Positions 17,513 to 56,595 of a DNA stretch of 64,000 bases are shown in pieces (the first letter of the stretch is position 1; each line of letters begins with the position of its first letter). The DNA comes from Eubacteriales bacterium (GTDB lineage: Bacteria; Bacillota; Clostridia; Oscillospirales; CAG-382), in the NCBI GenBank assembly GCA_045542335.1, contig JAZQKV010000086.1, positions 1,478 through 65,477 of the forward strand, given 5' to 3'. The position numbers and the translations under genes are program-made. The notes under the pieces were generated by a model. That model was not told the DNA's origin, searched no databases, and saw only the letters and a list, made by a program, of their open reading frames with translations.

Positions 17513-17530
17513 TCCCATAATATGTTTTAA

Positions 17531-17570
17531 GCGGACTAACCCGTTCTCTCCCGGGTTAGTCCGCTTTTTT
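17531..17570 (+). terminator. Rho-independent terminator
   Basis: GCGGACTAACCCG / CGGGTTAGTCCGC forms a 13-bp stem followed by TTTTTT. Confidence 0.9.
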
Positions 17571-17586
17571 CATATTAATTTGTTAT

Positions 17587-18420: not shown

Positions 18421-19409
18421 TTTATTTCTTCCTCGCTATCCGTGAATTTAAGTTCAATTGCTGTTTTATAAGACTGTCCGGGAGCTATGAATTTCAAAAG
18501 ACCTTGCTTTCTCATGACATCTCTGCCGTCAGGAGTGCAGTTCGCAGGTTCAAGTCCGAGAACATATTCGCCCTCGCCCATCATTTTCCATTCGGTAAAA
18601 TAATCAAGAGTTTGCTTGTCATAGCTCATCTTGAGTCCCTTTTTAATATCGGGATTGAATATTCCGACAGAGGCTGTGCCGTTTTTGTCCTTGACATCAT
18701 AAAAATAGCACATTTCTTCATAGTTTGCCTGCGGAACTTCCATTTTCTTTCTGTTTTCAATGTCAGAATCCGCATGGGCATTTCTTGCTTTAACAGAGTT
18801 TTCCGGAATAACAACCACAGAATTTTCCGAAAGAAGCGGATAACCCATGTTGAAATGGTAAAGAAGCATACAAGGGCTGTCCGTTGTCCCAAGGTTTATT
18901 ACAGAGTCCTCAATTTTAAGAATGTTTTCGTTTTTGGAACAGATATACTTTCTTTCAAGCATGAGCTTTCTTCCAAAAAGCGAAGCATCCCTGACAGACG
19001 CATTTATAACTATCTCATTTTCAGTTTCGGTGTAATAATAGTTTTCGCAAGGGGTGTTTGAGATTGTTCCATGCAAAGGAAGCTCCTCTCCCTCGTCAAC
19101 ACAAGGCGAACCCACTGCAGTAAGACCGCAGGTGGTAAGAAAACCTGCCGTGAAGGATTTCAGAAAGCCTCCGCCAACACCGTCATAAAACGCAGGCGCA
19201 ACATAACCGCAAGGAGCAAAGAAGCCCATGTTCACACCCTCAAAAGAGAGTCTTGAGATATCCATTGCACGATCCGCCGAAAGAGTGAACTGCAGTCCCT
19301 TGCCGTTGCGCACTTCAAGCAAAGTCATGCCCTTACCCTTGCCTTTGGCAAGAGTCATTTCCTCAACGCCGCAAAGCTGGGAAGGATGACCGATATATCC
19401 GTTAATCAT
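18411..19409 (-). CDS. Aldose-1-epimerase-like (galactose mutarotase fold) protein, DUF4432-type
   Basis: The protein is 332 aa and its N-terminus is GVEEMTLAKGKGKGMTLLEVRNGKGLQFTLSADRAMDISRLSFEGVNMGF. The call is by resemblance only. The gene overlaps the kinase stop by 8 nt. Confidence 0.55.
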   Translation of the reverse strand: MINGYIGHPSQLCGVEEMTLAKGKGKGMTLLEVRNGKGLQFTLSADRAMDISRLSFEGVNMGFFAPCGYVAPAFYDGVGGGFLKSFTAGFLTTCGLTAVGSPCVDEGEELPLHGTISNTPCENYYYTETENEIVINASVRDASLFGRKLMLERKYICSKNENILKIEDSVINLGTTDSPCMLLYHFNMGYPLLSENSVVVIPENSVKARNAHADSDIENRKKMEVPQANYEEMCYFYDVKDKNGTASVGIFNPDIKKGLKMSYDKQTLDYFTEWKMMGEGEYVLGLEPANCTPDGRDVMRKQGLLKFIAPGQSYKTAIELKFTDSEEEIKCL

Positions 19410-20850: not shown

Positions 20851-20884
20851 GCCCTTCCTTTCAGATAATCTATGTACTTATCAA

Positions 20885-22282: not shown

Positions 22283-22306
22283 AGTTCTATACACCTTTCA
22301 CAAAAA

Positions 22307-22335
22307 ATTTTATTTCACCATATTGATTTTATCAA
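22307..22335 (-). promoter_or_regulatory. Sigma-A promoter of the isomerase-kinase-epimerase-aldolase operon
   Basis: The minus strand reads TTGATA-17 nt-TAAAAT. It interleaves with the divergent regulator promoter. Confidence 0.45.
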
Positions 22336-22350
22336 ATATTGTGATATAAT
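22323..22350 (+). promoter_or_regulatory. Sigma-A promoter of the PocR/AraC regulator gene
   Basis: TTGATT-16 nt-TGATATAAT. Confidence 0.5.
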
Positions 22351-22405
22351 TATAGTCAATTCTATCTAAAAAATTGTAAATTTGTACGAAACGGTGGATA
22401 AATTT

Positions 22406-23209
22406 ATGAAATTAAAACTGAATATCCAAAAGCTCGAAGAAATCATGAGGGCGTTTTACACGCTCACAGGCATCCGCTTTGTGATTTTTGACAGCGACTA
22501 CAACGAAATACTTGCATATCCGGAGGTGCCGTGTGAGTTTTGTGCAAAGCTACGGTCAAATCCGACACTTCGTGAAAAATGTCGCATGAGCGATATTTGT
22601 GCATTTGAAAAGTGCCGTAAAAGCAAGGAAGTGCTTATTTACAAATGCCATGCAGGTCTTGTGGAAACCTGCACTCCCATAAAAAATGAGGACAAGATTC
22701 TGGGATATGTGATTTTCGGTCAGATTGCAGACACAAAGGACAAGGATGAGCTTAAAAGCATAACAAGCAAATCCGCACCCCAATGCCCCACCGACGGCAT
22801 AAACTACAAGAGCGAGAGCGAAATTCTTGCAGCAGCAAAGCTTCTTGAGATGTGTACGGACTATCTTCTTTTAAAGGAGATAATAGAGGCAGATACCGAA
22901 AAAATCATCACCGACGTAAAGGAGTATATTTCCCTGCATCTCGGGCAGGACATAAAAACAAGCGACCTTTGCACTTTAGCAAACGTCACCCGTACAAAGC
23001 TCTATGAAATCTTTGCCCGTGAATGTGGAATGGGAATTGCACGCTACATAAAAACCGAGCGTCTGAAAAAAGCACGACATCTTCTCAAAACAACCTCGCT
23101 TTCCATAACCGAGATTTCCGATTCAACAGGGTTTGCGGATTACAACTATTTCAGCCGTGTTTTCAAGGACTATTTCGGCGTTTCTCCGTCAAAGTTCAGA
23201 AAAAAATAG
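22406..23209 (+). CDS. AraC-family regulator with an N-terminal PocR sensory domain
   Basis: The PocR-like Cys-rich segment is PCEFCAKLRSNPTLREKCRMSDICAFEKCRKSKEVLIYKCHAGLVETCTPI. The C-terminus is LSITEISDSTGFADYNYFSRVFKDYFGVSPSKFRK. I prefer the ATG at 22406 (RBS GGTGGA 7 nt upstream) over the TTG at 22382. Confidence 0.82.
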   Translation: MKLKLNIQKLEEIMRAFYTLTGIRFVIFDSDYNEILAYPEVPCEFCAKLRSNPTLREKCRMSDICAFEKCRKSKEVLIYKCHAGLVETCTPIKNEDKILGYVIFGQIADTKDKDELKSITSKSAPQCPTDGINYKSESEILAAAKLLEMCTDYLLLKEIIEADTEKIITDVKEYISLHLGQDIKTSDLCTLANVTRTKLYEIFARECGMGIARYIKTERLKKARHLLKTTSLSITEISDSTGFADYNYFSRVFKDYFGVSPSKFRKK

Positions 23210-23246
23210 ATTCTCCTCTTTTCACAATGCCTTTACACAAAAAGCG

Positions 23247-23286
23247 TCGCCGCAGACAAGTCTTTCCTGTCTGCGGCGGTGTTTTT
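23247..23286. terminator. Bidirectional rho-independent terminator (ends the heme operon and the regulator gene)
   Basis: CGCCGCAGACA / TGTCTGCGGCG forms an 11-bp stem followed by GTGTTTTT. A-rich sequence lies on the other side. Confidence 0.85.
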
Positions 23287-23293
23287 AGCTTTT

Positions 23294-24442
23294 TTACTGT
23301 TCTGCCACACTCTTAAGTGCAGATTTTACATGAGAGAGGTCTTCGACTGTAACCGTGCCATCCTCATTTATGTCAAGGCGTTCAATGGTGTTGTCCTCGG
23401 TAAACTCGGAGAAGCCACGCATTACTCTTATAAAGTCGTCAATGTCAACAACTCCGTCGCCGTAAGGCTCGGAATAAGAGCCGGAAATGTCGCCGGGAGA
23501 AAGCGTGATGTCGCCAAGCGAAGCACCTGACGGGGTGACGGTAAATTCAACGGTATATGGCAGATAGCCGTTCTTGAGAATCTCGCCGTAATAGCTTCCG
23601 GGTGCGACTACAATGCTGAACGGAATGCTTCCGACAGCGGTATCCGGCGTTTCAAGCTGTGCGCTTCTCACAAGCTGATTCTTGTCGGAGGAGGTGTAAA
23701 TATTCAGCGTAGCAAGGTTTGAATATCCGCTTTCGGCGTTAACAATCGGCGTGTCTCCGTCGGCACGAATCGTCACAAGATTTCCGGTGATGCTTGCTTC
23801 GTCGGCATCATATGCAAAGGTAAATTCCGAGAGCACCGCACCCGTTTCTCCGTCCGCCGAAAGATAGAACACTCTTGAAGCATTGTCTATCTTTACAGGG
23901 GAAGCAGTGGTCGATGTCGGGAACACACCGGAAAGTGCACTGTCGGTAAGCTCCGCCGTTTCCAGACGCAGGGAGGATGCTGATTTGCTCTTGCCTTCGG
24001 CGACTTTATAGGTAAAACCGCACACGGTAGCCTTTGTGCTGAAATCTGCACCGTCCGCCTCGGTTGAAAGCGAAAGGTTTACGGTTGTAAGTGTGCCGTT
24101 GACAACATATTCAGGTGCGAGAAGGTTAAATCCCATGGCAGGCACAAAGCAAGCCGTCACCTCTGATTGCTCCGATGCACTTATTTCAAGAGCCGTTCCG
24201 TCTGCCGCACAAGGCACTATAACCGTGTTGTCATAGGAAAACACGAACTGTACCGAGCGCAGAGTGTCGGAGGTTACATCAAAATTCAGCGTGCAAATGC
24301 CATCCATTTCTTCTCCGACACTTTCGGTTATGCTGACGTATGCGGTTTTGTCACCCGTATGAGCAACGGCTGTGATAATTCCCACAACAATGGTAAGGGC
24401 AATCAGAACTGCGCTTACTGCAAAAATACTTTTTTTACGCAT
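23294..24442 (-). CDS. Membrane-anchored or secreted protein with cohesin-like beta-sandwich module(s), an X-module and a C-terminal dockerin
   Basis: The N-terminal hydrophobic anchor is IFAVSAVLIALTIVVGIITAV. The cohesin-like segment is ICTLNFDVTSDTLRSVQFVFSYDNTVIVP...GTLTTVNLSLS...CGFTYKVAEGKS. The X-module is GSYYGEILKNGYLPYTVEFTV. The dockerin is GDGVVDIDDFIRVMRGF..DINEDGTVTVEDLSHVKSAL. The RBS GGGGGAG sits 12 nt after the upstream stop. Confidence 0.7.
   Translation of the reverse strand: MRKKSIFAVSAVLIALTIVVGIITAVAHTGDKTAYVSITESVGEEMDGICTLNFDVTSDTLRSVQFVFSYDNTVIVPCAADGTALEISASEQSEVTACFVPAMGFNLLAPEYVVNGTLTTVNLSLSTEADGADFSTKATVCGFTYKVAEGKSKSASSLRLETAELTDSALSGVFPTSTTASPVKIDNASRVFYLSADGETGAVLSEFTFAYDADEASITGNLVTIRADGDTPIVNAESGYSNLATLNIYTSSDKNQLVRSAQLETPDTAVGSIPFSIVVAPGSYYGEILKNGYLPYTVEFTVTPSGASLGDITLSPGDISGSYSEPYGDGVVDIDDFIRVMRGFSEFTEDNTIERLDINEDGTVTVEDLSHVKSALKSVAEQ
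23315..23461 (-). other. Dockerin module (subtype A), C-terminal
   Basis: GDGVVDIDDFIRVMRGFSEFTEDNTIERLDINEDGTVTVEDLSHVKSAL. Confidence 0.75.
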
Positions 24443-24454
24443 TTTAACTCCCCC

Positions 24455-27400
24455 TTACTCCGAAACTGTATCCGACGCTTCACAGCCCATAACTCTTATT
24501 TCGGTAACAGCGGGCCAACGGTCGGTGGTTGTATTGTTGAGCTCTTTGATTTTAATGCTTGTTGTTGTGACAGGCTCATCAAATTCAAGCCACATCATTT
24601 CGCTTGTCTTTTTCATTGCAAGCCAGGCGGTCGTGCCGTCTGAAAGTTCAACAGTGCAGGATGTAAAGTAATCATCATGGTCAAAATCCGCCCGAATCTT
24701 TATTCCCACAGAGCTTACACACACGCTTCTTCCAAAGTCTATGCTTGCATAATCGTCGCTTGCATCGCCCTGATTAAGTCCCCAGCTCATAACGGGGTAG
24801 CCAAGACCTGTTGCGTCGTAATAGTGCAGAAGATTCATTTCAAAGCCATCAATAAGCGCACGGGCACGACAGTAATTTGAGCTGTAACGTGAAGAAACCG
24901 TCGCGTGCGGATAAATACCGGTGGCATCGTCGAGGTCAAAGGGATTGAGCGCAAGGTTACGCACAGAGGAAAGCTCGTCGTTGGTGGGAATTCTTGCGCT
25001 TGCAGTGTTCTCGGTGTAAAGCGTAAAGGCTTCCGTCGGGAAAACCGTTGACGCATACGAGGGAAATGTGTAAGTGAACACACCGTCAGGAACATAGATT
25101 ATGCTTTCGGCAACCTTGGGTGTAAAGGTGAAAGCAAGATATTTATGTCCTTCGGGAAGTGTTACGGTAAAGGTGTCACCCTGAGCATATTTGCGGGGAA
25201 TTGTGATGTACGCAGATTCGCTGTCTGTTGCAGAAGTACTTACGCCGTCTGCTCCGGCAAAGCTTATGGTTATCTCACCGGGCATTTCAAGACCTGCAAG
25301 CTTTTTCTTTGCCTGAGTGTCAAGCATTTCATAGAAATCACGTTTGCTGTCCTTTTCGGTGGCATCCCTCAGGTCATTGTCGCTCCAATTGACATTTTTA
25401 TCATACTTACCATAGGCGGGAACGCCAAGGTCAATCCATGCTCTTATGGTGCGAAGCTCGGCATCGGTAAGGTTATACGGTTCAAGAAGTGTGAAAAGTC
25501 CGGTGCTTGTCTTTGAGCCATACTCATAGGGCTCAAGCATTTCAGGCTTACTCATGGAATATATCCAATTGATATAGCTGTTTTGATAATCTCCGATCCA
25601 TTGAATATTGCTCTTTGGAGTTGAGCCTGTAAGCACGAGATAGGAAAGCGGGAAGGACTTCTTCATTCTTGGCGCAGGCATGAGCTTGCCGCCGAGATAG
25701 ATTTTTGAAGGCTCGGACACAATACTGCTTTGCTCGCCGCCAACTTTTATGTCGTATGCATACAGTGCAAAATCTGCGCCTATTTCGCCGCTCGCATTGG
25801 GTACTTCCATTGCAAGGATATTCTGACCCTGCACAAAATACTTTGATATTGCAGTGCCGAGGTCAAATATGTCATACCCTGTATTATAGCCGTTCTTTTC
25901 CCATATAAGGTTTCCGTTGAGATAAAGCTTTGGGTCTTCATCATAAAGTGCATACAGCTTGATGCCGCAATTTGAATACTCCGCAAGATTCTCAATATTA
26001 AAGGCTGTCCTTGCATAAAGTGTATTTCCGTCGCCTTTGTATTCCGTATTATAGCCCACGGCTTTCATGTTTCCAAACGGTGCGTCGTTAAGTGTCCACG
26101 AAGAATCATCAAAAGTGTTTGATGTCCATGAGGAATCGGGAGCTTCTGCGGTGTAAACATTGGTCCAGGTAGCTCTCGGATCAACCAGATATTTTTCGTC
26201 AAATGCCTTAAAATGGGCATAAAGACCAAGGTCAAAATATCCGCCGTAAGCATTTGTAGGGTTGGTAAGTCTGACGGAAATCACGTTATCGCCCACAACA
26301 AGGGCATCCTTGAAGGCTTCGTCAAGGTAAACATCTCTGTAACCCCAACCGGTATAATAGCCTCCGCTTCCGCCGGCGGTATTGTTAAGGAACTTTGTTC
26401 CGTTGACGTAAAATTCGGGAGCTTGTGCATAAAAGGCATTGAGGCTGAAGTCTGCCTTTGCAAGCATATCCGCAGTAACGGTGAAATGCTTTCTTACCCA
26501 AAGATAGCCTGCAACCTGAAGTTCGCCCCATGTCGTTGCGTAGGTTCTCTTTGTGCCGTTACCAAAGGGAGCATTGCCGGTTGACCAGGACGAAGCATCA
26601 AAGTCTGCGGCGTGAACAGCCGTGCCGAGGGTATCACTTGAAGCGACGTTATAGCTCCAGCTTGAACCCTTGTCGATAAGTGTTGTGGTATAGCTTTCGG
26701 TAATGAGGTTTCTTTCCACAATACCGCTTGCAAGCAATGCCATATCATAGCCTGCCTCGCCGTTTGCCTCATTTGGAGCAGCCGTCGCAAGGACATTTGT
26801 ACCCTCGCGAAGATACTTTGTGCAGGTTGAGCCAAGGTCAATCGTTGTGTAACCTGTTGTATAGCCGGAGGTAGAATAGATGAGGTTGCCGTTAAGGTAA
26901 ATGCTCGGGTCTTGGTCGTAAAGCAGATTCATTTTAAGGGTCACGCCCTCATATTCTGAAAGGTCTTCAATTTCAAAGCTCTGACGGACATACATGGTGT
27001 TTCCACCGGCAACTACAAAATTTGAGTTTGTTCCCACGCATTTTACGTTTCCGATGGGACCTTCACCCGATGTCCATGAACTGTCATCAAAGTCCACGGC
27101 GGTCCAGTTTTCGGGAGCACCCGTCGCATTGTCAATCACGCTGTATTTAAGCTCACTTCTTGCTTCAACAAGGTACTTTTCGTCGTACTTGCGGAAATCT
27201 GCGTAAAGTCCAAGGTCAAACGCACCGCCATTTGCATTTGCGTTTGTTGGGTTGGTAAGTCTGACGGCGATTGTGTTTGTGCCAACCTTTAAGGCACTCT
27301 TGAAATCTTCGTCAAGGTAAACGTCACGGTAGCCCCAGCTTGTGAACCAGCCGCCGCTTCCGGAGGTGGTATTATTAAGGAACTTTTTGCCGTTGACGTA

Positions 27401-30124
27401 AAATTCGGGTGCTTGTGCGTAATACGCATTAAGTCTGAAATCCGCTTTGTCGAGTGTGGTCTGATCGGGAATGGTAAAGGTCTTTCTCACCCAAAGGTAT
27501 CCCGAGGCGTTCTTTTCATACCATACTGTATTGTGTGTGACCGTACCGTTTCCGAAAGGTGCAGCCCCCGTGAGCCAAGTGGAGGTATCGTAATCCTCTG
27601 CATACCACTCTGCACCGTCAAGCGAATTTGAGGTATTCATGAAGTATGTCCAGTCCGCACCATGATCTATAAGAGTATCGGTGTAAGCTTCGAGGATTGC
27701 GTCGTCGGGGATGACTATGTCGCCCTCGGGAAGAACAACAGGCTTATTGTCGGAATACATTTTGAATGAGAACACAGGTGCTTGCAAGTACGGTGCTTGA
27801 ACCTTTACAGCAATGGTGTTCTCACCCATGCGGAGCATTGAAATCATATCGTCCGTAAAGAAATTCCGTACGGTTTCCGAAGCACCGCTTCCGGAAAGGG
27901 CAAGCTCTCCGTTGAGATATACTGTATAGTTGCCCGTTGAGATAACCTCAAACAAAGGCGTGTACTCACTTATCATGTAGTTATCGGCGGTAAACTTACG
28001 TCTCAAATAAAGCTCACCGCTTTCCCAGACGGAGTTGACTTCGCAAAGTCCGTTTGCGTGTGCACCAAAAGGAGCATAAAGTCCATGCCAAGCGGAGGAA
28101 TCAAAGTCCTCGGCGTACCATGTTCCGCTTTGCGCTTCAAAGGAAACGTCCCATTTATCGTCCGCAAGTATCGCAACGGGACGGGCATCAGAGTCAAGTC
28201 CTGTCATAGAAGAGGCTGAAACGGCAACCATCGCCTGGGAGATATTCGAATAATCGGTGGTTGTTTTTTCGTTAAATATCTTCTGAACCTCATCCTCGTA
28301 GTCGAAGCCGATCGGCTCGTCTGTATACGGATCATAGTCCGCATAAATGTCATCCTCCTGCCATGCTTCACGGGTTATTTTCTGCACTCCCTTTTTGAGT
28401 GCAAGTGTGGGGGTTGCGTTTGCAGGGGGAACATTGTCCTTGTTCTCGTGGCAGCCAACGCACGAAAAGCTCTCGCCGGGCATAAGTGTTGTCCAGCTTC
28501 GCATACTTGCTATTACACAGCCCTCATCGTCAAGCACCTGGAAATAAAGCGGTGTATCCGAGGGAGCTTCAAACAGGCATGAGCCGTCCTCCTCTATGGG
28601 TACGCTTCCAAGCACCGCCTTTACGTCCCATGCGCCATAGCCCGTCGAAATCGGAGAGAACGGGTCTGCACCGGGCTGAACGGTAGCACCTATTGCGTAG
28701 TTTCTGAATTTGAGTGCAACGACACGGAGTTCTTTTGCCGTTCCTCTTTCAACGCCCGTCATTCCCTCGCCTGCGTAAACGTTTCCGATATAATATGTTC
28801 CGCTTTTCTTTGCATAGTTTACCATAGAGCTTCTGAGGAACATTTCACGGGTCTTTACAGGGACAACCTGTGCCGGAGAATAGTTGTTTTCAAAGTACGA
28901 AATGGGTACAAGGTTTTCCGTGGAGCTTCCGTCGCTAAGATAAAGGTTAAACTGTGCATCTGACGACGGAATTTTCCACACATCCCAGTTGTCGGGATCT
29001 TCGATAATGCCGTCAAGGTCGGCAGCAATAAAGAAGGTTTCGCTGTCAATGGGATAAGGATATCGGTAAATTGCGCCGACCTGACCATATTGGTCAACGT
29101 TGTCTGTCTTTTCGGAATACTCGTCAGGGAAAACAAAATTCACAGCATCCTTGCTGTTTCTTTCAATGTTGACATCAACCGTAACAAGCTTTCCGAGCTG
29201 AGTTGTGTGGTGACCCGTGGCAATCGCCATATACTTTCCGCTTTCGCCGGGGATTTCACGGGCGTGAATCAGAGAGGTGGGGAAGTTTGAATTGTTGCCG
29301 TAAAGCTCGGTCTGATTGGTGCCGTCGGGCATCATCTGGAAAAGGCTCTGGATATAGAGCTGTGTTCTGTCGTTATAGTCCCAACGGGTGTAAATAATTC
29401 TGCCGTCGCCTGTGAGCTTTGGGGTAGTGGTATGAACCTGATCATAACCGATTCTTCTGATGTTTGAGCCGTCGGGATTCATTATGAAAAGATTTGATAC
29501 AGGCACTTTCCAGCAGTCAACCGTCTGGATAATCCTGCTTGAAGAGAACATGATATTTCCGTCGGGAAGATATATAGGCTCGAAATCAGAAACACCGTCG
29601 CCGAAAGTAAGCTGTTTTACACTTCTGTCGGCAAGGGTCATTTCGTAAATTTTGAAATCCTCATATTTGTTTGCTCTCTGTGAATATATAACTGTTTTTC
29701 CGTCAGCCGAAACATCCGGGTCACGGACAACGCCGCTTGGCAGGTCAACGAGTATTTCCTCGGTTACAGTGATAGAACTTTCAGAGGCCTTTTCAACAGA
29801 GAGAAGTACCATTCTTGATGGTGTGCCCTTTATGCTCGCTTCACCTTTTTCGGGAAGTGATGTACCGTAAATGATTTCCTCGGCAAGATCCTCCGTATAG
29901 GAAAAATGCGAGCCGCCCATGCGCTTGATTTTGGTGAGAATATATGTACTTGAATGTTCAAGCGCACGGTCAACAACCGCCATTTGATCAGCGGTGAGGT
30001 TTTCAACTGTTATTGTGGTAACATCACCAACAGCGGCTCCAACCTTTGCGGTATCGCTGTAAATCACCGTCATGGGAAGAACAAGTACAAGGGTGAGCAC
30101 GAGTGAAAGTATTCTGTTTTTCAT
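24455..30124 (-). CDS. 1889-aa secreted protein. It has a TolB/PD40-type beta-propeller, an HzsA-middle-domain-like region with one CxxCH heme c site, five galactose-binding-like (CBM-type) modules, and a C-terminal discoidin (F5/8 type C)-like domain.
   Basis: The signal peptide is MKNRILSLVLTLVLVLPMTVIYS. PD40-like repeats include VSADGKTVIYSQR..IYLPDGNIMFSSSR. The heme region is DGSCLFEAPSDTPLYFQVLDDEGCVIASMRSWTTLMPGESFSCVGCHE. There are five modules with the D(D/S)SxW..(A/G)P(F/I)G motif. The C-terminus is ALIDGFEMN...VTEIRVMG. The RBS AGGGAGGA sits 15 nt after the upstream stop. Confidence 0.75.
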   Translation of the reverse strand: MKNRILSLVLTLVLVLPMTVIYSDTAKVGAAVGDVTTITVENLTADQMAVVDRALEHSSTYILTKIKRMGGSHFSYTEDLAEEIIYGTSLPEKGEASIKGTPSRMVLLSVEKASESSITVTEEILVDLPSGVVRDPDVSADGKTVIYSQRANKYEDFKIYEMTLADRSVKQLTFGDGVSDFEPIYLPDGNIMFSSSRIIQTVDCWKVPVSNLFIMNPDGSNIRRIGYDQVHTTTPKLTGDGRIIYTRWDYNDRTQLYIQSLFQMMPDGTNQTELYGNNSNFPTSLIHAREIPGESGKYMAIATGHHTTQLGKLVTVDVNIERNSKDAVNFVFPDEYSEKTDNVDQYGQVGAIYRYPYPIDSETFFIAADLDGIIEDPDNWDVWKIPSSDAQFNLYLSDGSSTENLVPISYFENNYSPAQVVPVKTREMFLRSSMVNYAKKSGTYYIGNVYAGEGMTGVERGTAKELRVVALKFRNYAIGATVQPGADPFSPISTGYGAWDVKAVLGSVPIEEDGSCLFEAPSDTPLYFQVLDDEGCVIASMRSWTTLMPGESFSCVGCHENKDNVPPANATPTLALKKGVQKITREAWQEDDIYADYDPYTDEPIGFDYEDEVQKIFNEKTTTDYSNISQAMVAVSASSMTGLDSDARPVAILADDKWDVSFEAQSGTWYAEDFDSSAWHGLYAPFGAHANGLCEVNSVWESGELYLRRKFTADNYMISEYTPLFEVISTGNYTVYLNGELALSGSGASETVRNFFTDDMISMLRMGENTIAVKVQAPYLQAPVFSFKMYSDNKPVVLPEGDIVIPDDAILEAYTDTLIDHGADWTYFMNTSNSLDGAEWYAEDYDTSTWLTGAAPFGNGTVTHNTVWYEKNASGYLWVRKTFTIPDQTTLDKADFRLNAYYAQAPEFYVNGKKFLNNTTSGSGGWFTSWGYRDVYLDEDFKSALKVGTNTIAVRLTNPTNANANGGAFDLGLYADFRKYDEKYLVEARSELKYSVIDNATGAPENWTAVDFDDSSWTSGEGPIGNVKCVGTNSNFVVAGGNTMYVRQSFEIEDLSEYEGVTLKMNLLYDQDPSIYLNGNLIYSTSGYTTGYTTIDLGSTCTKYLREGTNVLATAAPNEANGEAGYDMALLASGIVERNLITESYTTTLIDKGSSWSYNVASSDTLGTAVHAADFDASSWSTGNAPFGNGTKRTYATTWGELQVAGYLWVRKHFTVTADMLAKADFSLNAFYAQAPEFYVNGTKFLNNTAGGSGGYYTGWGYRDVYLDEAFKDALVVGDNVISVRLTNPTNAYGGYFDLGLYAHFKAFDEKYLVDPRATWTNVYTAEAPDSSWTSNTFDDSSWTLNDAPFGNMKAVGYNTEYKGDGNTLYARTAFNIENLAEYSNCGIKLYALYDEDPKLYLNGNLIWEKNGYNTGYDIFDLGTAISKYFVQGQNILAMEVPNASGEIGADFALYAYDIKVGGEQSSIVSEPSKIYLGGKLMPAPRMKKSFPLSYLVLTGSTPKSNIQWIGDYQNSYINWIYSMSKPEMLEPYEYGSKTSTGLFTLLEPYNLTDAELRTIRAWIDLGVPAYGKYDKNVNWSDNDLRDATEKDSKRDFYEMLDTQAKKKLAGLEMPGEITISFAGADGVSTSATDSESAYITIPRKYAQGDTFTVTLPEGHKYLAFTFTPKVAESIIYVPDGVFTYTFPSYASTVFPTEAFTLYTENTASARIPTNDELSSVRNLALNPFDLDDATGIYPHATVSSRYSSNYCRARALIDGFEMNLLHYYDATGLGYPVMSWGLNQGDASDDYASIDFGRSVCVSSVGIKIRADFDHDDYFTSCTVELSDGTTAWLAMKKTSEMMWLEFDEPVTTTSIKIKELNNTTTDRWPAVTEIRVMGCEASDTVSE
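28448..28462 (-). other. CxxCH heme c attachment motif (CVGCH)
   Basis: The plus strand reads gtggcagccaacgca, which on the minus strand is TGC GTT GGC TGC CAC. Confidence 0.7.
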
Positions 30125-30139
30125 TGTTTATTCCTCCCT

Positions 30140-32788
30140 TCAGTTGTTTACAAGCACAAGGTCGGTTGCATACGCCCTGCCGCTTCTTGTTTCGGTAATT
30201 GTAAAGGTAAGAGTTCCGCCTTCAGCAAAATCTTCGGGTATTTCAAAGGACGAGGGGAACTGCACCGTATAAAGTGCGCCGTATTTCATTGCCGGAAGCT
30301 CAAAGCTCTTGCTTTCAAGAGAGTTTCCGTCGGCATCTGCAAGGGTAATTGTGACGGTCGCCTCCCTTGCATATTTATCTTGCTTTCTTACGGTGAAATA
30401 ATCGGGTACGGCACCGGGAGCAATCTTTGAGTAGAGAGTTGCTCCATCGGAGGCAGTGGCAAAAATCTGCTCGATACCGTAGGCTTCATTCTCCGCACCT
30501 ATTGAAAGTACATATTCCGTAAGGTCGTCGATTTCGCTTTGGGAAAGGTTCAGACCCTCGGTATCATGCACGACACTTTCACGGGCTGTCGCAAACTTTC
30601 CGTTAAAGCGGTACGGTGCGCTTCTCCAGACCTCAACAAGAGTCGATGTATCAAAGGGTCTGTATTCCCAGCCGTCGGTTTCGGGGTCAATAATTCCGTT
30701 ATCGTGAAGCTTCATATCCGTGTAAAGGGGCGCAGGATGGCAGGTGATACACCCCGCCTCATCAAACAGCTGCTTTCCGTTTTGTGCCGATGACGTGAGT
30801 GTTCCGTCACGGTTAAGATAAGGAGATGCAACCGGAGAAAGGCTCTTTAAATATTCGTCGATTGCCGCCATGCCTTCCTCGGGAATAACGTTGAATTGAA
30901 TGTATTTCATACCTGCTCTGACAGCAGTTTCGGCGTTTGCTCTGATACCCGTCACCATTACGGGCGGTGTTCTGTGGGAATAAAGCATACTCTTTGCGCT
31001 CTTGTGTGTTCCGATGCCGTCGTTGAGGTTGTCCCAGTTAAGTCCGTCTACGCGTGCGTCGGGATGACAACTGTTACAGGACTGCCAGCTCTGATAGCAA
31101 AGGGTTGCGTCACTCCAGAGGATATGTCCTTGGCGCACCACATCATTTTCGGGCTGTGCACCAAGAGAAACGGTTTCTACCTCCATGGTATCAAGTGAAA
31201 GTGCGGCAATGTCGCCTGTAAAATACTGTGCAAAATACGCTGTATTTCCATCGGCGGCAACCGCAACGCCCCTCGGACCATTGCCCGAAAGAGCAATTCT
31301 CTGTCTTGCACCATCAAGGAAATTAAGGCTGTTTGCGGTGCTCGAAAGAGTACCTGTGCTTTCCTCGGAACTCAATTTATCGTTGAGTGTGGGAATGTCA
31401 ATTACCATCGCCTCATGTACACCGGAAAGAGCAACGACCAGCTTGTCGCCGGAAATTTCAATACCCCATGGATTTGCCGCGCCAAGGTCAGTCTTGTCAA
31501 GGAGTACGGTGGCATAAGGCGTGTCGGTAGTGCAGTCGAAAATCGTTACTGCGTTGGTGTTTATCCAACCTCTGTCAAGCTGGGTCGTGGGATAGGCGTA
31601 TCTTCCGAGCACATGAGTTATGTAAAGCCTTCCGTTTCCGTCAGCGACAACATCCTTTACACCCGATGCGCCGTTGATAATAGGCTCGGTCTTTATAACG
31701 GTGTTTGTTTCAAGGTCAATGACCGAAACCTTTGCGGAAACGACGTCCTCCGTTGCCGCATCATCTGTAAGGTGATGCACTGCATAAAGCTTACCGTCTG
31801 ATACTGCAAGGGCTATCGGCTCACGGATGACGTCAATGTGCGTAGTTATACTGTAATCGGAGGTGTCAATGACCGAAATTGTGTTTGAAAACCTATTGGC
31901 AACATAAAGCTTACCGTCTGAAAGCGCCATGTCCGTGGGGGTGTGACCGACTTCAAGAGTTTCAATGACCGCAAAGTCGTCTGCGTCAAGCACGCTTACA
32001 ACACCCGAAAGACCTCCTTCGGCAACATAGACCATTCCGTCTTCTGCCATTACGCCGTTTACGTCATCCGAAGCAATGTAAGTCTTTGCGATTTCACCGT
32101 CGGAAAGCCTGAGCTTATAGACCGCTCCCCTTGTTTCGTCGCCTACCGCCGCATAATTCCCGTCAATAACGGCAAGAGATGCGGGAGAAATGTATTCAGA
32201 TTCATCTATATAACGCTCTCCCTCAAAAATTGCGTCGGTTAAAGTCTTGCCCTTGCCCGAAAGCAGTATAGCCAGGTCCTCTGTGTCCACCTTACCGTCC
32301 GAGGTAAGGTCGGAAAGGGGATTTTCAAGATTTGCTTTCTTTTTATTGTAGTCCGCATTAAGGAGTGCAAGATCCTCCCCGTCAATTCTTCCGTCGGTGT
32401 TTATGTCACCACCGAAGGCACGCAGATCAACAGCCGCAAGCTCCTCGCCCGACTGCACCTTTACGGAGTTTATTCTGTAAGGCAAAAATCCGTCTGCCTC
32501 TATAACCAGGGTATAATAGCCTTCAACGGGAATATCCGAAAGCTTAAAGCTTTTTCCCTTGGTGGTGGTCCTGCTTACCGTAGCCATTGTTTCGGCGTCA
32601 AGAAGCGAAACCGTGTATACCTTTTCAACGGTATTTACATCAAGCGAGCCGTTTACGGAATATCCGTTTGAAAACAGATCAACAATTCCGGAAAGTCCCA
32701 CATCGGAAACGGCAAACACCGCAATTCCGAGAACAATCACCGTCGCTACAGCGCAAATTGCCACTGTCAGTTTTTTCTTACCGAGCAT
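30140..32788 (-). CDS. Secreted or anchored protein with an X-module, a canonical N-terminal dockerin, a YVTN-type beta-propeller and a C-terminal di-heme cytochrome c peroxidase/MauG-like domain
   Basis: The anchor or signal is LTVAICAVATVIVLGIAVFAV. The X-module is GYYTLVIEADGFLPYRINSV. The dockerin is DINTDGRIDGEDLALL..DLTSDGKVDTEDLAILL. YVTN-like blades include DGKLYVANRFSNTISVID and DGKLYAVHH. The CCP-like part is GHILWSDATLCYQSWQSCNSCHPD, GKQLFDEAGCITCHPAPLYTD and TLVEVWRSAPYRFNG. I prefer the ATG at 32788 (GGGAGG 8 nt upstream) over the TTG at 32794. Confidence 0.78.
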   Translation of the reverse strand: MLGKKKLTVAICAVATVIVLGIAVFAVSDVGLSGIVDLFSNGYSVNGSLDVNTVEKVYTVSLLDAETMATVSRTTTKGKSFKLSDIPVEGYYTLVIEADGFLPYRINSVKVQSGEELAAVDLRAFGGDINTDGRIDGEDLALLNADYNKKKANLENPLSDLTSDGKVDTEDLAILLSGKGKTLTDAIFEGERYIDESEYISPASLAVIDGNYAAVGDETRGAVYKLRLSDGEIAKTYIASDDVNGVMAEDGMVYVAEGGLSGVVSVLDADDFAVIETLEVGHTPTDMALSDGKLYVANRFSNTISVIDTSDYSITTHIDVIREPIALAVSDGKLYAVHHLTDDAATEDVVSAKVSVIDLETNTVIKTEPIINGASGVKDVVADGNGRLYITHVLGRYAYPTTQLDRGWINTNAVTIFDCTTDTPYATVLLDKTDLGAANPWGIEISGDKLVVALSGVHEAMVIDIPTLNDKLSSEESTGTLSSTANSLNFLDGARQRIALSGNGPRGVAVAADGNTAYFAQYFTGDIAALSLDTMEVETVSLGAQPENDVVRQGHILWSDATLCYQSWQSCNSCHPDARVDGLNWDNLNDGIGTHKSAKSMLYSHRTPPVMVTGIRANAETAVRAGMKYIQFNVIPEEGMAAIDEYLKSLSPVASPYLNRDGTLTSSAQNGKQLFDEAGCITCHPAPLYTDMKLHDNGIIDPETDGWEYRPFDTSTLVEVWRSAPYRFNGKFATARESVVHDTEGLNLSQSEIDDLTEYVLSIGAENEAYGIEQIFATASDGATLYSKIAPGAVPDYFTVRKQDKYAREATVTITLADADGNSLESKSFELPAMKYGALYTVQFPSSFEIPEDFAEGGTLTFTITETRSGRAYATDLVLVNN
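30737..30751 (-). other. CxxCH heme c attachment motif 2 (CITCH) of the CCP/MauG-like domain
   Basis: The plus strand reads atggcaggtgataca, which on the minus strand is TGT ATC ACC TGC CAT. Confidence 0.75.
31064..31078 (-). other. CxxCH heme c attachment motif 1 (CNSCH) of the CCP/MauG-like domain
   Basis: The plus strand reads atgacaactgttaca, which on the minus strand is TGT AAC AGT TGT CAT. Confidence 0.75.
32255..32413 (-). other. Dockerin module (subtype B: both Ca-binding loops canonical), N-terminal position
   Basis: GGDINTDGRIDGEDLALLNADYNKKKANLENPLSDLTSDGKVDTEDLAILLSG. Confidence 0.75.
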
Positions 32789-32814
32789 TTTCAATGCCTC
32801 CCATGATAGAATTA

Positions 32815-33582
32815 TTAAGAGTATGTGTGAAGTGAATCCGATGGAATCATGTCCACAAAAAGAAGTGTAAATACAAGTGCAAAAAATCCGATTATGACGA
32901 AAGCCTTCGCAAATCGCCTAAATCGCCCGACCCTTCGCATATGCAGATAACCGCTGTAAAAAAGCAAAGTCAGAAGTGAAAAGCACTCCTTGACGTCCCA
33001 CGTCCAGAACTCGCCCCACACTTCATTTGCCCACGTTGCGCCGCAAAGCATACCCGAAAGCATAAAGGGCAACGCCGTTTTCACGAGCAGACCGCAGGCG
33101 TTTTCACATTCCCCTGCCCTATCAGTAAAAATCATCCCCCACACACAGCACACAAAGGACACGGCGCAAAGAGTATAGGAAATCATGTATAAAAAAACAT
33201 GGGGTACAAAAAACGGTGAATCAAGTGCCGGCGGAAAGTGCCAGGCACCGCTGTCAGACATAAAGCCAACGCCGACAAGAATTATGCCCGAAAGTGCCGG
33301 GAAAAATTTCAATATGAACATTTGCTTTTTGACCATACACATATATATGGCTGAAAATGTCATCGTCACCGCAAGGAAAGTAAGCACCTGATACATACTC
33401 ACAAACGGCACATATCCGTTTATAACGGCGTTTCTCAAAACAAGAAACAGATTTATGCACATACCGCCTGCGTAAAGCACATTCATAAGCTTTGGAAGCT
33501 TTCCTGTTGCTATAAGAAGCGCACTCACAATATAAAGCGCCGCACCGCAGAAGGTTATTGCCATAAGCAGCTTTACGGTCAT
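32815..33582 (-). CDS. ccsA: Cytochrome c biogenesis protein CcsA/ResC (System II heme-handling subunit)
   Basis: The Trp-rich WWD motif WANEVWGEFWTWDVKE is at nt 32986-33033. Conserved His contexts are PPALDSPFFVPHV and YSGYLHMR. The protein is polytopic. The ATG overlaps the ccsB stop (ATGA). Confidence 0.85.
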   Translation of the reverse strand: MTVKLLMAITFCGAALYIVSALLIATGKLPKLMNVLYAGGMCINLFLVLRNAVINGYVPFVSMYQVLTFLAVTMTFSAIYMCMVKKQMFILKFFPALSGIILVGVGFMSDSGAWHFPPALDSPFFVPHVFLYMISYTLCAVSFVCCVWGMIFTDRAGECENACGLLVKTALPFMLSGMLCGATWANEVWGEFWTWDVKECFSLLTLLFYSGYLHMRRVGRFRRFAKAFVIIGFFALVFTLLFVDMIPSDSLHTYS

Positions 33583-34325
33583 GCCTTATCACCGCCTTCC
33601 GAAGTATCTTGCTCCGACGGTGCATTACCGTCCTTTTTCTTTTTTCTTTCCGGTGCAAACGCCGTGACAAAAGCTCCAGCCACCATGCAGATTATTCCGA
33701 CAAGGCTTATAAACTCCCCGGGGTCACGCTTTATAAGCAGATTCACCTGCAAGCTCTGCCCCATTCCGTAAAAGCCCATGAGATATATTTTATATCCGTT
33801 TTTCCTTACAGGCTTGTTAACAGAAATATCAAGGCTCTCGGCAAGGCGGCTTCTCTTTTGAGTAAATGTAAGCACTCCGTTGTACTCCTTATCCGAGCCG
33901 TCGGGATAAGTGACAATTTCGAAGGAATCAAGCGACATTTCGAAGGGAAGACTTACACTTTCATAGTTTCCGTCGGACTTTTCGTTTTGTATTTCCGAAT
34001 ACACCAAATCGGGATCGGGCGGCATAGAAACGTTGTATTTTGCACCCGTAAAGTTGTAAATCGTAATTCCCGCTAAGAAAAACACCATTCCGAAATGAAG
34101 TGCAAGAACGCCGATTGACCGGAGTGTAGGTCTTGACGTGTACGCAAGTACAAGCACAGCACCGGTCGCCGACAACACAAGCAACAATGCCGATATAACA
34201 AAAGTCACAGGCGTATCTGCAGAAAATGCAATTCTGTGTGCCACATATACCGTACAAAGCACAGCTTCCACGGCGCACAATATTCCAGACAAACTTAAAA
34301 TCTTCTTTTTTGCGCCACTTGACAT
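33579..34325 (-). CDS. ccsB: Cytochrome c biogenesis protein CcsB/ResB, short form
   Basis: The TM His context is VLALHFGMVFFLAG. The ResB-like C-terminal motif is ISVNKPVRKNGYKIYLMGF, followed by a last TM helix. I chose the ATG at 34325 (MSSGAKKK..). The ORF-track ATG at 34361 lies inside a palindrome and has no RBS. The AAGGAGG for 34325 is 14 nt upstream, so the start is not certain. Confidence 0.75.
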   Translation of the reverse strand: MSSGAKKKILSLSGILCAVEAVLCTVYVAHRIAFSADTPVTFVISALLLVLSATGAVLVLAYTSRPTLRSIGVLALHFGMVFFLAGITIYNFTGAKYNVSMPPDPDLVYSEIQNEKSDGNYESVSLPFEMSLDSFEIVTYPDGSDKEYNGVLTFTQKRSRLAESLDISVNKPVRKNGYKIYLMGFYGMGQSLQVNLLIKRDPGEFISLVGIICMVAGAFVTAFAPERKKKKDGNAPSEQDTSEGGDKA

Positions 34326-34349
34326 ATGGTTTCTCGTTCCCTCCTTATT

Positions 34350-34373
34350 CACGTTAACCATTCGGTTAACGTG
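34350..34373. promoter_or_regulatory. Perfect 10-bp inverted repeat in the ccsB leader (candidate operator or RNA hairpin)
   Basis: CACGTTAACC-ATTC-GGTTAACGTG. It lies between the predicted TSS and the RBS of ccsB. Confidence 0.5.
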
Positions 34374-34442
34374 TCAATATATCGGCGTACCTGTAAACAT
34401 TTTGGTTAATTTTACCAAAGCACCCAATCGATTCACAAGTAA

Positions 34443-34471
34443 AATATATCATATTTTCACAAATTTGTCAA
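34443..34471 (-). promoter_or_regulatory. Sigma-A promoter of the ccsB-ccsA-heme protein operon
   Basis: The minus strand reads TTGACA-17 nt-TGATATATT (extended -10). The leader is about 110 nt. Confidence 0.6.
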
Positions 34472-34501
34472 GTACTTTTTTGGATTTTTTCCAAAATCCT
34501 C

Positions 34502-34530
34502 TTGACAACTTCATTTTGTTGTGTTATCAT
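34502..34530 (+). promoter_or_regulatory. Sigma-A promoter of the ArsR-like regulator / GH51 unit
   Basis: TTGACA-17 nt-TGTTATCAT. It lies 30 bp from the divergent ccsB promoter. Confidence 0.6.
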
Positions 34531-34564
34531 ATAGGCAAACGAAATTAACCTTTTGGAGAACACT

Positions 34565-35476
34565 ATGAAGCATTTTTCTCTGTCAGACTCACTTCCCGTT
34601 TTCAAAGCTCTTGCCTGCCAGACAAGGCTCGACATATTGCGCATCATAAGCTCACGCCCGTGTACACAGAGGGACATCGCATCTTTGCTCGGTATAAGCC
34701 CTGCAATTGTGTCGGAGCATATAAAACAGCTGTGCGATGCGGGGCTTGTAAAGTTCGAGCCAATCGGCAAAGAACGCAAAAATATGTGCTTTGTCGCGGA
34801 AAGCAAATTCTTATTCACTATTGCGGGAAATTCGGGCACAAATGCAGAATCTTTTTCTTTCAAAAATAGCATTCCTGTCGGAATGTTCTCGGCACACAAG
34901 GTCAGTCCGACCTGCGGAATGGTTGGAAAACTCGATCAGCTTGTTGAAAACGACAACCCCGAAGAATTTCTGTCACCGCTTCGTGCTCAGGCTCAGCTTT
35001 TGTGGTTTGCAAAGGGCTTTGTTGAATACGAAATCCCCGTCAGAATCTCAAACCGCAGTCTTAAAAAAGTATCCTTCACCGCAGAGTTAAGCTCCGAAGC
35101 ACCTTGCTATAATGAACACTGGCAATCCGAAATTCACTTTTATCTGTGTGGCACTCACCTTGGCTCATGGCTATGCCCCGGTAACTTTGGTGAGCGTCAC
35201 GGGAATCTCACTCCGTCTTTCTGGCGCACAGGACTTGCAAGTCAATATGGAATACTCAAAACCGTGACGATTGATGATACAGGCTGTTATATTGACAGCG
35301 AAAAGATTTCCGATGTGACAATTGACATGATTGATATTTCAAGCGGAAGGTTTTCGCTTCGCTTTTCCTGCGACGAGGACTCAGCTGTCCCCGGAGGTAT
35401 TACACTTTTTGGCAAGGAATTTGGTGATCATCCGTACGACATTGAGTTTACGCAGATGTACAATCTGAAAAATTAG
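34565..35476 (+). CDS. ArsR-type winged-HTH regulator with a C-terminal domain of about 200 aa and unknown function
   Basis: The wHTH is VFKALACQTRLDILRIISSRPCTQRDIASLLGISPAIVSEHIKQLCDAGLV. I prefer the ATG at 34565 (GGAG 6 nt upstream) over the TTG at 34553. Confidence 0.75.
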   Translation: MKHFSLSDSLPVFKALACQTRLDILRIISSRPCTQRDIASLLGISPAIVSEHIKQLCDAGLVKFEPIGKERKNMCFVAESKFLFTIAGNSGTNAESFSFKNSIPVGMFSAHKVSPTCGMVGKLDQLVENDNPEEFLSPLRAQAQLLWFAKGFVEYEIPVRISNRSLKKVSFTAELSSEAPCYNEHWQSEIHFYLCGTHLGSWLCPGNFGERHGNLTPSFWRTGLASQYGILKTVTIDDTGCYIDSEKISDVTIDMIDISSGRFSLRFSCDEDSAVPGGITLFGKEFGDHPYDIEFTQMYNLKN

Positions 35477-35546
35477 TAAAACACTGCAAGCCTATGGACA
35501 GTTTGTCTGCGTGCAAAAAGTATTGTTAAATTTATGGAGGGATAAT

Positions 35547-56493: not shown

Positions 56494-56595
56494 GTGATTT
56501 CTTCCTTTCTTTAACGTGACGTTGCACGAAGTATGAATGATAAAGCACCTGACAGCATCATTGCACTGATGCTTATGATGTTCCATCTACCTTTT

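Follow-up and report, generated by a model that had tools for sequence, protein, structure and literature searches.

Homologs of hydrazine synthase (HZS), the enzyme of Kuenenia stuttgartiensis whose structure is deposited as 5C2V, occur outside anammox bacteria, where the NCBI product name for the family is 'HzsA-related protein'. Two papers, both of 2025, discuss the family, and they disagree. Hagglund et al. (2025; PMC12758564) described clades I-IV, in which an HzsA-related alpha protein is co-located with a fused beta-gamma protein, and took the homologs outside anammox bacteria to be non-anammox heme proteins; PMC11828985 took a 'previously undescribed HzsA' in ten phyla as anammox potential. 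Neither lists Clostridia, a linked System II cytochrome c maturation pair, dockerins, or loss of heme alpha-II. Here we describe an operon in which these traits come together, at positions 23294-34471 of a 64,000-nucleotide stretch of contig JAZQKV010000086.1 (Eubacteriales bacterium, assembly GCA_045542335.1); 'the window' refers to that whole stretch. Its five minus-strand genes encode a CcsB-CcsA pair, an HZS beta-gamma-like di-heme protein (betagamma below), an HzsA-related alpha-like protein, and a 382-aa protein with a dockerin. The operon is a new form of this recently recognised, uncharacterised family. Our literature search returned no paper with the term 'HzsA-related', found 'Hydrazine synthase-like' in one paper on metagenome-assembled genomes (MAGs) of Planctomycetota/KSB1, and found nothing describing such a cassette. 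The features on which the comparison rests are the following.

33579-34325, minus strand: ccsB/resB-like gene, 248 aa from Met13 (open reading frame, ORF, to 34361), by Pfam ResB
32815-33582, minus strand: ccsA/resC-like heme-handling subunit, 255 aa, by Pfam Cytochrom_C_asm
30140-32788, minus strand: HZS beta-gamma-fusion homolog, 882 aa from ATG (884-aa ORF), by NCBIfam, PDB and fold matches
32264-32410, minus strand: type I dockerin in betagamma, DINTDGRIDGED ... DLTSDGKVDTED, Dockerin_1 25.7 bits (cut-off 22.9)
31064-31078, minus strand: CNSCH, equivalent of heme gamma-I, aligned with CASCH of 5c2v_C
30737-30751, minus strand: CITCH, equivalent of heme gamma-II, aligned with the CLECH region of 5c2v_C
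24455-30124, minus strand: HzsA-related alpha-like protein, 1889 aa, Pfam HZS_alpha 2.5e-28
28448-28462, minus strand: CVGCH, equivalent of heme alpha-I, canonical, invariant in 31/31 aligned homologs
28250-28264, minus strand: TTTDY, remnant of a second CxxCH (equivalent of heme alpha-II), residues 621-625, by homolog alignment

Judged by sequence and modelled fold, an HZS-type system is divided between the 884-aa protein, a fused beta-gamma homolog, and the 1889-aa protein, an alpha homolog, because hidden Markov model (HMM), PDB-sequence and fold matches all give chains A, B and C of 5C2V as the closest solved structures. A preliminary description of this DNA had recognised two secreted CxxCH proteins with propellers and a di-heme domain. 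Our analysis supports that content; the HZS identity had not been drawn, HZS_alpha being listed there only among HMMs to be checked, and it is this HMM that now gives the match listed above.

Betagamma consists of a signal peptide, an Ig-like CarboxypepD_reg domain, the type I dockerin, a 7-bladed YVTN propeller, a di-heme gamma-like domain and a C-terminal beta-sandwich. It matched the NCBIfam hydrazine_BC fusion (1.5e-29), beta (4e-22) and gamma (3e-15) models, all far under their equivalog cut-offs, as well as 5c2v_B (2.7e-15) and 5c2v_C (7.4e-14) in the PDB; a profile of 30 homologs gave 2e-26 and 6e-27, respectively. The AlphaFold2 (AF2) model had a mean predicted local distance difference test score (pLDDT) of 74.7, with values >90 in the propeller, and its top Foldseek match among all propellers was 5c2v_B (E 9e-21, target template-modelling score 0.83). 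Both of its CxxCH motifs, which lie ~105 residues apart, are invariant in 30/30 aligned homologs and present in all ~85 loci. This conservation, like that of the alpha CVGCH motif, is above chance, and it bears out the earlier expectation that the three CxxCH sites, all at the coordinates first given for them, would be kept in orthologs. Elsewhere in the window no CxxCH motif was found in any other real gene, the 2 further matches being antisense shadow ORFs.

The preliminary description had labelled the di-heme domain CCP-MauG-like, after the di-heme cytochrome c peroxidase (CCP)/MauG family. Against Pfam CCP_MauG, betagamma reaches 17.4 bits, under the gathering score of 25.6. A likeness is present: the C-terminal half of betagamma has two CxxCH motifs and matches CCP structures, and the family profile reached 3o5c at 1e-14 and 1iqc at 2e-8, the matches ranging from 1e-14 to 1e-4 and covering only the second-heme half. 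Unlike CCP/MauG proteins, betagamma also contains a propeller and has a second heme-propeller subunit as its partner, and the inter-heme Trp of CCP/MauG was not identified in it.

The alpha-like protein begins with a signal peptide, a TolB/Tricorn-like 6-bladed propeller and the HZS-alpha middle heme domain. In its C-terminal part, five GH2_N-like galactose-binding-type modules interrupt a degenerate heme alpha-II domain, separating its decayed motif from the remainder, and are followed by an F5/8 type C module (GH2_N 3.4e-7 in three stretches, F5_F8_type_C 1.1e-6); the inserted modules share the recurring motif W..DFD.SSW....APFG. A 31-sequence alpha profile matched 5c2v_A at 1.4e-23, aligned through both HZS-alpha heme motifs. 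For the AF2 model of residues 1-630 (pLDDT 74.9), the top Foldseek match was again 5c2v_A (E 1e-23 over 631 columns), with TolB next at 2.5e-11, twelve orders behind. The N-terminal 630 aa share 39-45% identity with proteins of Planctomycetota, Lentisphaeria, Sumerlaeota and Bacteroides that NCBI names 'HzsA-related'.

The second heme site of the alpha-like protein has been lost. In each of the 30 aligned alpha homologs, another C..CH follows the first at a distance of 50-65 residues and aligns with CAMCH of 5c2v_A; the window protein has TTTDY there. The conserved His of the 'GHxGV' motif, 24 residues before AWIDL, is likewise replaced by PYN (~25430-25450, residues ~1535-1540). CxxCH and His are lost together in the window protein and in its closest relative, L085 (74% amino-acid identity); L026 has lost the CxxCH and kept the His, every two-heme alpha homolog retains the His, and most relatives keep both. 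Because the alpha-II CxxCH and its His are gone, the predicted complex here is one of three hemes, compared with four in most relatives. With alpha-II lost naturally, the lineage offers a variant in which to ask which of the hemes are indispensable.

Comparison with 5C2V shows what is shared with HZS and what is not. The sites of hemes gamma-I, gamma-II and alpha-I are equivalent, and for each of the three modules 5C2V is the nearest among solved structures. On the other hand, beta and gamma are fused here; the Tyr591/Zn site, the third thioether of gamma-Cys165, the Asp168 loop and heme alpha-II are missing; the proteins are predicted to be extracellular rather than housed in the anammoxosome; and they carry large additions of carbohydrate-binding type. 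As one test for HZS proper we used heme alpha-I, with Tyr591 as its proximal ligand and His587 diverted to Zn. When CSGCHYGSY of 5c2v_A is aligned with CVGCHENKD, Asp563 falls at the position of Tyr591. Gamma-Cys165 and Asp168 lie in a loop, the 5c2v_C segment 'rvcgrdpg', which HZS alone possesses and which has no counterpart in the family profile; Thr615 takes the place of gamma-His144 in the alignment. Ligation by alpha-Tyr591 is central to the present picture of the HZS mechanism (PMC12607021), and the residues missing here are the same ones that Hagglund et al. found missing in non-anammox homologs (PMC12758564). The equivalog models agree: the alpha-like protein scores 42 bits against NF052339 (HzsA; cut-off 800) and betagamma 103 bits against NF052342 (HzsBC; cut-off 1250). 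On residues and equivalog scores we rejected a genuine hydrazine synthase, and the chemistry predicted for the complex is almost certainly not hydrazine synthesis.

With the non-anammox homologs the operon shares the two-gene pair, the fused beta-gamma protein, two gamma CxxCH motifs, one canonical CxxCH in the alpha middle domain (PF18582), the missing HZS-specific Tyr and Cys, and Sec signal peptides. It differs from them in its host phylum, the host being a gut- or rumen-type member of the Clostridia; in the gene order, betagamma then alpha with a dedicated ccsB-ccsA pair in front; in its dockerin, the five galactose-binding-type modules in the alpha-II domain and the lost heme alpha-II; and in a divergently transcribed ArsR/MarR-type regulator whose probable operator is conserved.

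By profile scores and aligned residues, ccsB and ccsA are a genuine, short System II cytochrome c synthase pair, as had been proposed. The ccsB-like protein scores 80.3 bits against Pfam ResB (1.7e-22, cut-off 24.6), and the ccsA-like protein 84.3 bits against Cytochrom_C_asm (1.2e-23, cut-off 29.9). CcsA aligns over its full length with Helicobacter hepaticus CcsBA (7S9Y), so that VPH128V corresponds to P-His1, WANEVWGEFWTWDVKE to the WWD motif, YLH214MR to TM-His2 and SLH251TY to P-His2. CcsB has N-terminal transmembrane (TM) helices, a soluble domain of ~110 aa and a C-terminal TM helix (TM scan); its His89 (ORF numbering), in the TM segment LALHFG, aligns with the TM histidine of the solved CcsBA 25vk_A, as does the VNKP..GYKIY region with that protein. 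In common with System II CcsBA/ResBC proteins (H. hepaticus CcsBA, 7S9Y/7S9Z), the pair thus has WWD, P-His1, P-His2, TM-His1 and TM-His2, and, as in many Firmicutes, CcsB and CcsA are separate genes with a stop/start overlap. In contrast to CcsBA, the pair is much shorter (248 + 255 aa), falls below the cut-off of the stricter NCBIfam CcsB equivalog TIGR03144 (108.6 bits versus 187.6), has no ResA/CcdA nearby, and appears to have a single client of two proteins instead of a set of respiratory cytochromes. The TIGR03144 shortfall fits a short, divergent System II version. The earlier term 'minimal' is a relative one for CcsB: the solved, fused CcsBA 25vk aligns with it over a soluble stretch that is about as short.

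The start of ccsB most likely lies at Met13 (ATG 34325, giving 248 aa), because the first ATG falls within a conserved palindrome and is missing in L085, where the gene was called at 240 aa. The Met13 codon is preceded by AAGGAGG at rather long spacing.

In the window we found neither a WCxxC protein nor, in agreement with the preliminary description, a ccdA/resA-like gene, and no ccdA/resA-like thiol-reduction partner is conserved in related loci. The thiol-reducing branch of Bacillus subtilis is needed only to reverse extracytoplasmic disulfide formation. Because the branch does no more than undo such disulfides, its absence is plausible, by analogy, in a strict anaerobe.

The family is large. 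In a 90%-clustered database we found >948 homologs of betagamma and >1028 of the alpha N-terminal region, and an exhaustive search of 1.84 billion representatives gave 1131 clusters at E<=1e-30. Relatives of betagamma occur on 206 stretches in GTDB species representatives, so that the system is no rarity peculiar to this genome. Among the best 80 of these 206 stretches, which we surveyed taxonomically, most are from gut or rumen MAGs (Oscillospiraceae, Acutalibacteraceae, Christensenellaceae, Candidatus Howiella, Faecousia, Eubacteriales, Clostridia); they also include Lentisphaeria, Kiritimatiellia, Verrucomicrobia and Marinilabiliales, and one cultured isolate, Bacilliculturomica massiliensis (L074). 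In this human gut strain, Marseille-P3303, the locus (NZ_LR027602.1, 297072-318895) holds alpha (1090 aa, two CxxCH), ccsB, ccsA and betagamma (two CxxCH), and betagamma is followed by a 1200-aa protein that groups with the alpha family and has no CxxCH.

An alpha-like subunit is conserved alongside betagamma in 82/85 loci. For synteny we counted the 58 Firmicute-type loci with >=2.2 kb of upstream DNA, taking the ccsA tally from a tblastn table: ccsB-ccsA lies directly upstream of betagamma-alpha in 49/58, elsewhere in the locus in 3/58, and none was seen in 6/58. The maturation genes look dedicated to the betagamma-alpha pair, as had been suggested from this locus, because they directly precede the same two substrates in 49 of 58 loci. 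Relative to L085, nonsynonymous differences (pN 0.13-0.33) are far fewer than synonymous ones (pS ~0.7-0.8) in all six genes, and dN/dS is ~0.09-0.19 where computable, which points to genes under purifying selection.

The fifth gene stands apart from this conserved set.

23294-24442, minus strand: 382-aa secreted protein with a weak cohesin-like N-domain, a PEGA/Ig-like middle and a type I dockerin (23315-23461), by Dockerin_1

Used as query in a homolog search, the 382-aa protein found no sequence but its own, and its sole relative among the fetched loci is in L085 (58% identity). The unit of five genes set out in the preliminary description is thus to be narrowed: the conserved part is ccsB-ccsA-betagamma-alpha, and the fifth gene, found only in the closest relative, appears from this distribution to be lineage-specific. 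Its dockerin is well supported (26.4 bits against the Dockerin_1 cut-off of 22.9; best PDB match 5lxv_B of Ruminococcus flavefaciens), and with that of betagamma it accounts for the two dockerins originally recognised. A two-sequence profile of the 382-aa protein gave 5 PDB matches, all of them cohesins, at E 0.16-0.36. A putative role as an operon-encoded adaptor fits, because in the fetched loci the 382-aa gene occurs only where betagamma bears a dockerin.

A dockerin repeat pair on the betagamma N-terminus is confined, among the loci, to the window, L085 and L086; six other loci have dockerin pairs on the alpha C-terminus. Because the two arrangements place the dockerin on different subunits, surface tethering is predicted to have been acquired more than once. 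As in cellulosomal dockerin enzymes and adaptor scaffoldins, the dockerins here are of type I with two Ca-binding repeats; the 382-aa protein follows the cohesin-like plus dockerin domain logic of adaptor scaffoldins, and the best PDB matches are from Ruminococcus and Acetivibrio cellulosomes. They differ from the cellulosomal enzymes in that the cargo would be a heme-c redox complex, not a glycoside hydrolase, and in that the cohesin match is sub-threshold. No cohesin-bearing partner scaffoldin was recognised in the window, and no cohesin was seen in its SLH proteins (12782-14164 and 52918-56586). A literature search for a tie between dockerins and the maturation of bacterial c-type cytochromes found no such paper; a study of anaerobic methanotrophic archaea (PMC9012536) covers archaeal proteins with dockerins and cohesins in general.

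For the function of the complex, the best available lead is a link to carbohydrate-derived substrates, suggested by gene neighbourhoods. Six Bacteroidota loci have the pair in one operon with an FGGY (xylulokinase-like) kinase, a DeoC aldolase and a Zn- or Fe-dependent alcohol dehydrogenase (ADH); a hybrid two-component sugar-type regulator lies within the locus in 5/6, and a RidA/chorismatase-like protein in four. Two Bacteroides-like contigs from the gut have a gene order that runs from an SGL/NHL protein through two DUF6905 genes, an FGGY kinase, a Zn-ADH and a DeoC aldolase to alpha, betagamma and a small propeller. One of these two contigs (L087) continues with the RidA/chorismatase-like protein, a fused ResB-CcsA (738 aa; 16387-18603, same operon) and the hybrid two-component regulator. 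Four Marinilabiliales loci have alpha, betagamma, a small propeller, Fe-ADH, DeoC and FGGY kinase, the hybrid regulator being immediately upstream in 3/4; in one of the six (L079), which has an Fe-ADH, DeoC scores above the TIGR00126 cut-off and the kinase resembles xylulokinase. Across phyla, alpha homologs often end in F5/8-type-C or DUF7402 modules.

In the window, a PocR-AraC regulator (22382-23209, plus strand) lies downstream of the operon terminator. Beyond it is a same-strand cluster (17587-22294) of a fucose/sulfoquinovose-isomerase-like gene (NF048012 2e-31, far under cut-off), an FGGY kinase, a DUF4432 gene and a class II ketose-bisphosphate aldolase; the cluster resembles the Bacteroidota operons in its kinase and aldolase content.

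Transcription and control of the operon were analyzed from ORF calls and from consensus and hairpin scans, which confirmed the promoter, the five packed minus-strand genes and the terminator of the preliminary description.

34443-34471, minus strand: operon promoter TTGACA-17-(TG)TATATT with extended TG, consensus match 11/12
34354-34369, no strand: perfect inverted repeat TTAACC-N4-GGTTAA in the ccsB leader, probable operator
34502-34530, plus strand: regulator promoter-like site TTGACA-17-TATCAT with TG, 11/12 match, mirroring the operon promoter
34553-35476, plus strand: divergent ArsR/MarR-type winged-helix regulator, 307 aa, Pfam HTH_5 3.8e-12
23248-23278, minus strand: intrinsic terminator at the operon end, 13-bp stem with 9 GC pairs and a T-run, the only strong one in the region

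The five genes (ORFs 33579-34361, 32815-33582, 30140-32794, 24455-30124 and 23294-24442) form one transcription unit. The site at 34471..34443 is the top-scoring minus-strand promoter match of the region, and internal terminator-like matches are weak and at chance level (16 seen versus 15.4 expected from shuffles). The ccsB stop and ccsA start share an ATGA overlap, and the remaining gaps of 26, 15 and 12 nt carry GGGAGG, AGGGAGG and GGGGGAG, respectively, ahead of the next gene, all as first reported; the 26-nt gap requires that betagamma start at ATG 32788, not at TTG 32794. An Rfam search of 22000-36000 found no known RNA element.

The divergent regulator matches the NCBIfam ArsR/SmtB metalloregulator subfamily at 9e-13, below its cut-off, and its C-terminal ~230 aa match no family; the same gene lies upstream of ccsB in ~10 loci. 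The repeat at 34354-34369 is the sole perfect TTAACC-N4-GGTTAA match in the window, with degenerate copies at 34394-34409 and 34545-34560, so that 3/8 of the window's matches with <=2 mismatches fall within this 200-bp region (2.5 expected per window). Two copies are found in the equivalent intergenic region of each of seven other loci, L026 and L085 among them, all of which have the regulator. This repeat is probably the operator of the ArsR/MarR-type regulator, and the operon is probably repressed by the regulator through it.

Taking these results together, we favour, as the more probable reading, a dedicated heme-c maturation system that serves a surface-tethered, glycan-associated redox enzyme of HZS architecture. 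The part of it concerning identity and assembly is highly probable; a specifically glycan-linked catalytic role is put forward tentatively. Both apoproteins would be exported by Sec. CcsBA would export heme and attach it outside the membrane at three CxxCH sites (gamma-I, gamma-II and alpha-I). Help from CcdA/ResA would be unnecessary because the anoxic exterior would keep the cysteines reduced. The alpha-like and betagamma-like proteins would then associate as in HZS, and the complex would be held at the cell surface through the betagamma dockerin, attachment possibly being mediated by the 382-aa cohesin-like/dockerin adaptor. Alpha, through its five galactose-binding-type modules and its F5/8-C module, would place it on glycans, where this extracytoplasmic heme redox enzyme may act on a small molecule at or released from them; one active heme would supply another by an internal route, on the HZS model.

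Several points weigh against this proposal. No gene for an electron donor or acceptor was found in the operon, which makes the turnover of an extracellular, dockerin-tethered enzyme hard to account for. Heme attachment and complex formation are predicted from homology across the family, and AF2 confidence is low near the heme-binding loops, at residues 591-611 of betagamma and 556-569 of the alpha-like protein, as expected for models without cofactors, which limits what can be said of the active site. The modules resembling carbohydrate-binding modules could be only anchors. In Clostridia, no carbohydrate-catabolic gene is conserved beside the cassette, and the 17587-22294 cluster, absent beside the cassette in all other Clostridia loci, was not adopted as part of the system and is kept as a lead only. 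Finally, the cohesin half of the 'cohesin-like plus dockerin' description of the 382-aa protein is weakly supported: the N-domain matches Pfam Cohesin at E=0.03 and 14.9 bits, under the cut-off of 24.1, although the match spans profile positions 11-127 of 139.

Host-associated anaerobes encounter NO and H2O2, and the main rival explanation, which we consider unlikely, is that the complex detoxifies or scavenges reactive nitrogen or oxygen species (NO, hydroxylamine, nitrite, H2O2) at the surface, as a peroxidase or NO reductase. Its CCP-like domain would reduce the oxidant, and the glycan and dockerin modules would only position it. The gamma-like domain is indeed related to di-heme peroxidases, by the CCP profile matches given above, and to HZS-gamma, whose heme gamma-I binds NO (PMC12607021); the regulator weakly resembles redox- or metal-sensing ArsR/MsvR types. 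Yet a simple peroxidase or NO reductase needs no second heme-propeller subunit of 600 residues, and this subunit is kept in nearly every locus (82/85); the genes that accompany it in the Bacteroidota operons encode a kinase, an aldolase and an ADH, controlled by sugar-type regulators, and are not stress genes; and for this function, too, the electron donor is not encoded.

Extracellular electron transfer by Gram-positive bacteria with multiheme cytochromes exists, for example in Thermincola, and covalent heme proteins are predicted here outside a Gram-positive cell together with their own maturation system. The c-type hemes might form a conduit of this sort, by which electrons from fermentation reach acceptors outside the cell or flavin shuttles at its surface, the complex acting as terminal reductase or as wire. 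This is improbable, as the complex would have just three hemes, set within enzyme-like propeller domains homologous to a catalytic complex, and neither a membrane-anchored cytochrome nor a quinol dehydrogenase is in the operon. Moreover, the lost heme, alpha-II, is the electron-transfer heme of HZS, the opposite of what a wire would need.

Still less credible is that the complex forms N-N bonds, as a genuine hydrazine synthase or otherwise, with the cryptic anammox-like nitrogen chemistry that PMC11828985 suggested across many phyla from HzsA-like genes, even though the three-module architecture is the same, the gamma-I, gamma-II and alpha-I sites are equivalent and most relatives keep alpha-II. 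To the equivalog shortfalls, the residue replacements and the loss of alpha-II described above are added the host, a CAZyme-rich fermentative Clostridium, and the window, which has neither a hydrazine dehydrogenase nor a nitrite reductase; PMC12758564 concludes likewise for other non-anammox homologs. That the locus is a decaying, non-functional remnant, as the joint loss of the second CxxCH and its partner His in the alpha-like protein might suggest, is highly unlikely: all ORFs, the promoter, the ribosome-binding sites and the terminator are intact, the relative at 74% identity has the same loss, and on pN far below pS in every gene we rejected a pseudogene.

The favoured reading, a dedicated maturation system with a surface-tethered redox complex, places predicted covalent heme-c proteins with their own maturation genes on a surface architecture of cellulosome type. 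To our knowledge, Clostridia lineages of this kind are generally regarded as cytochrome-c-free fermenters. Because the pair sits with dockerins and carbohydrate-binding modules in fermentative Clostridia, and in sugar operons in Bacteroidota, the family would do something other than anammox; these contexts bear on the disagreement between PMC11828985 and PMC12758564, favouring the non-anammox side, and make matches of the PF18582 type unsafe markers of nitrogen loss. A four-gene, self-contained Firmicute cassette also occurs in the cultured B. massiliensis, and for this reason the function of the family is experimentally approachable.

A broader proposal, which we regard as rather doubtful at present, is that heme-c complexes of HZS architecture are a widespread, so far unrecognised class of extracytoplasmic, glycan-targeted redox enzymes of anaerobic polysaccharide degraders (Clostridia, Bacteroidota and the Planctomycetes-Verrucomicrobia-Chlamydiae group), in some Clostridia bona fide cellulosome or cell-surface cargo, performing redox chemistry on a carbohydrate-derived substrate beyond the reach of hydrolases. 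If true, they would be the anaerobe's counterpart to auxiliary-activity redox enzymes, and 'hzsA-like' matches in metagenomes would report carbohydrate metabolism rather than nitrogen loss.

The rest of the window is rich in genes for carbohydrate-active enzymes (CAZymes) and for SLH, dockerin and RsgI proteins. At 5554-7418 there is a pair of RsgI-like anti-sigma and SigI-like sigma factors, a type that regulates cellulosomal genes in cellulolytic Clostridia. A 2139-aa protein (40739-47158) combines GH2 N-terminal and GH2 domains with two F5/8 type C modules and an acetyl-xylan-esterase domain, and a 1434-aa protein (234-4538) has Listeria-Bacteroides repeats, a dockerin and a metallophosphoesterase domain. 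The 759-aa ORF at 49347-51626 has no Pfam match at E<=0.01. At 61669-63929, oxaloacetate decarboxylase alpha-like (HMGL/PYC_OADA) and Na+-pumping beta subunits are encoded, which points to sodium-motive decarboxylation energetics.

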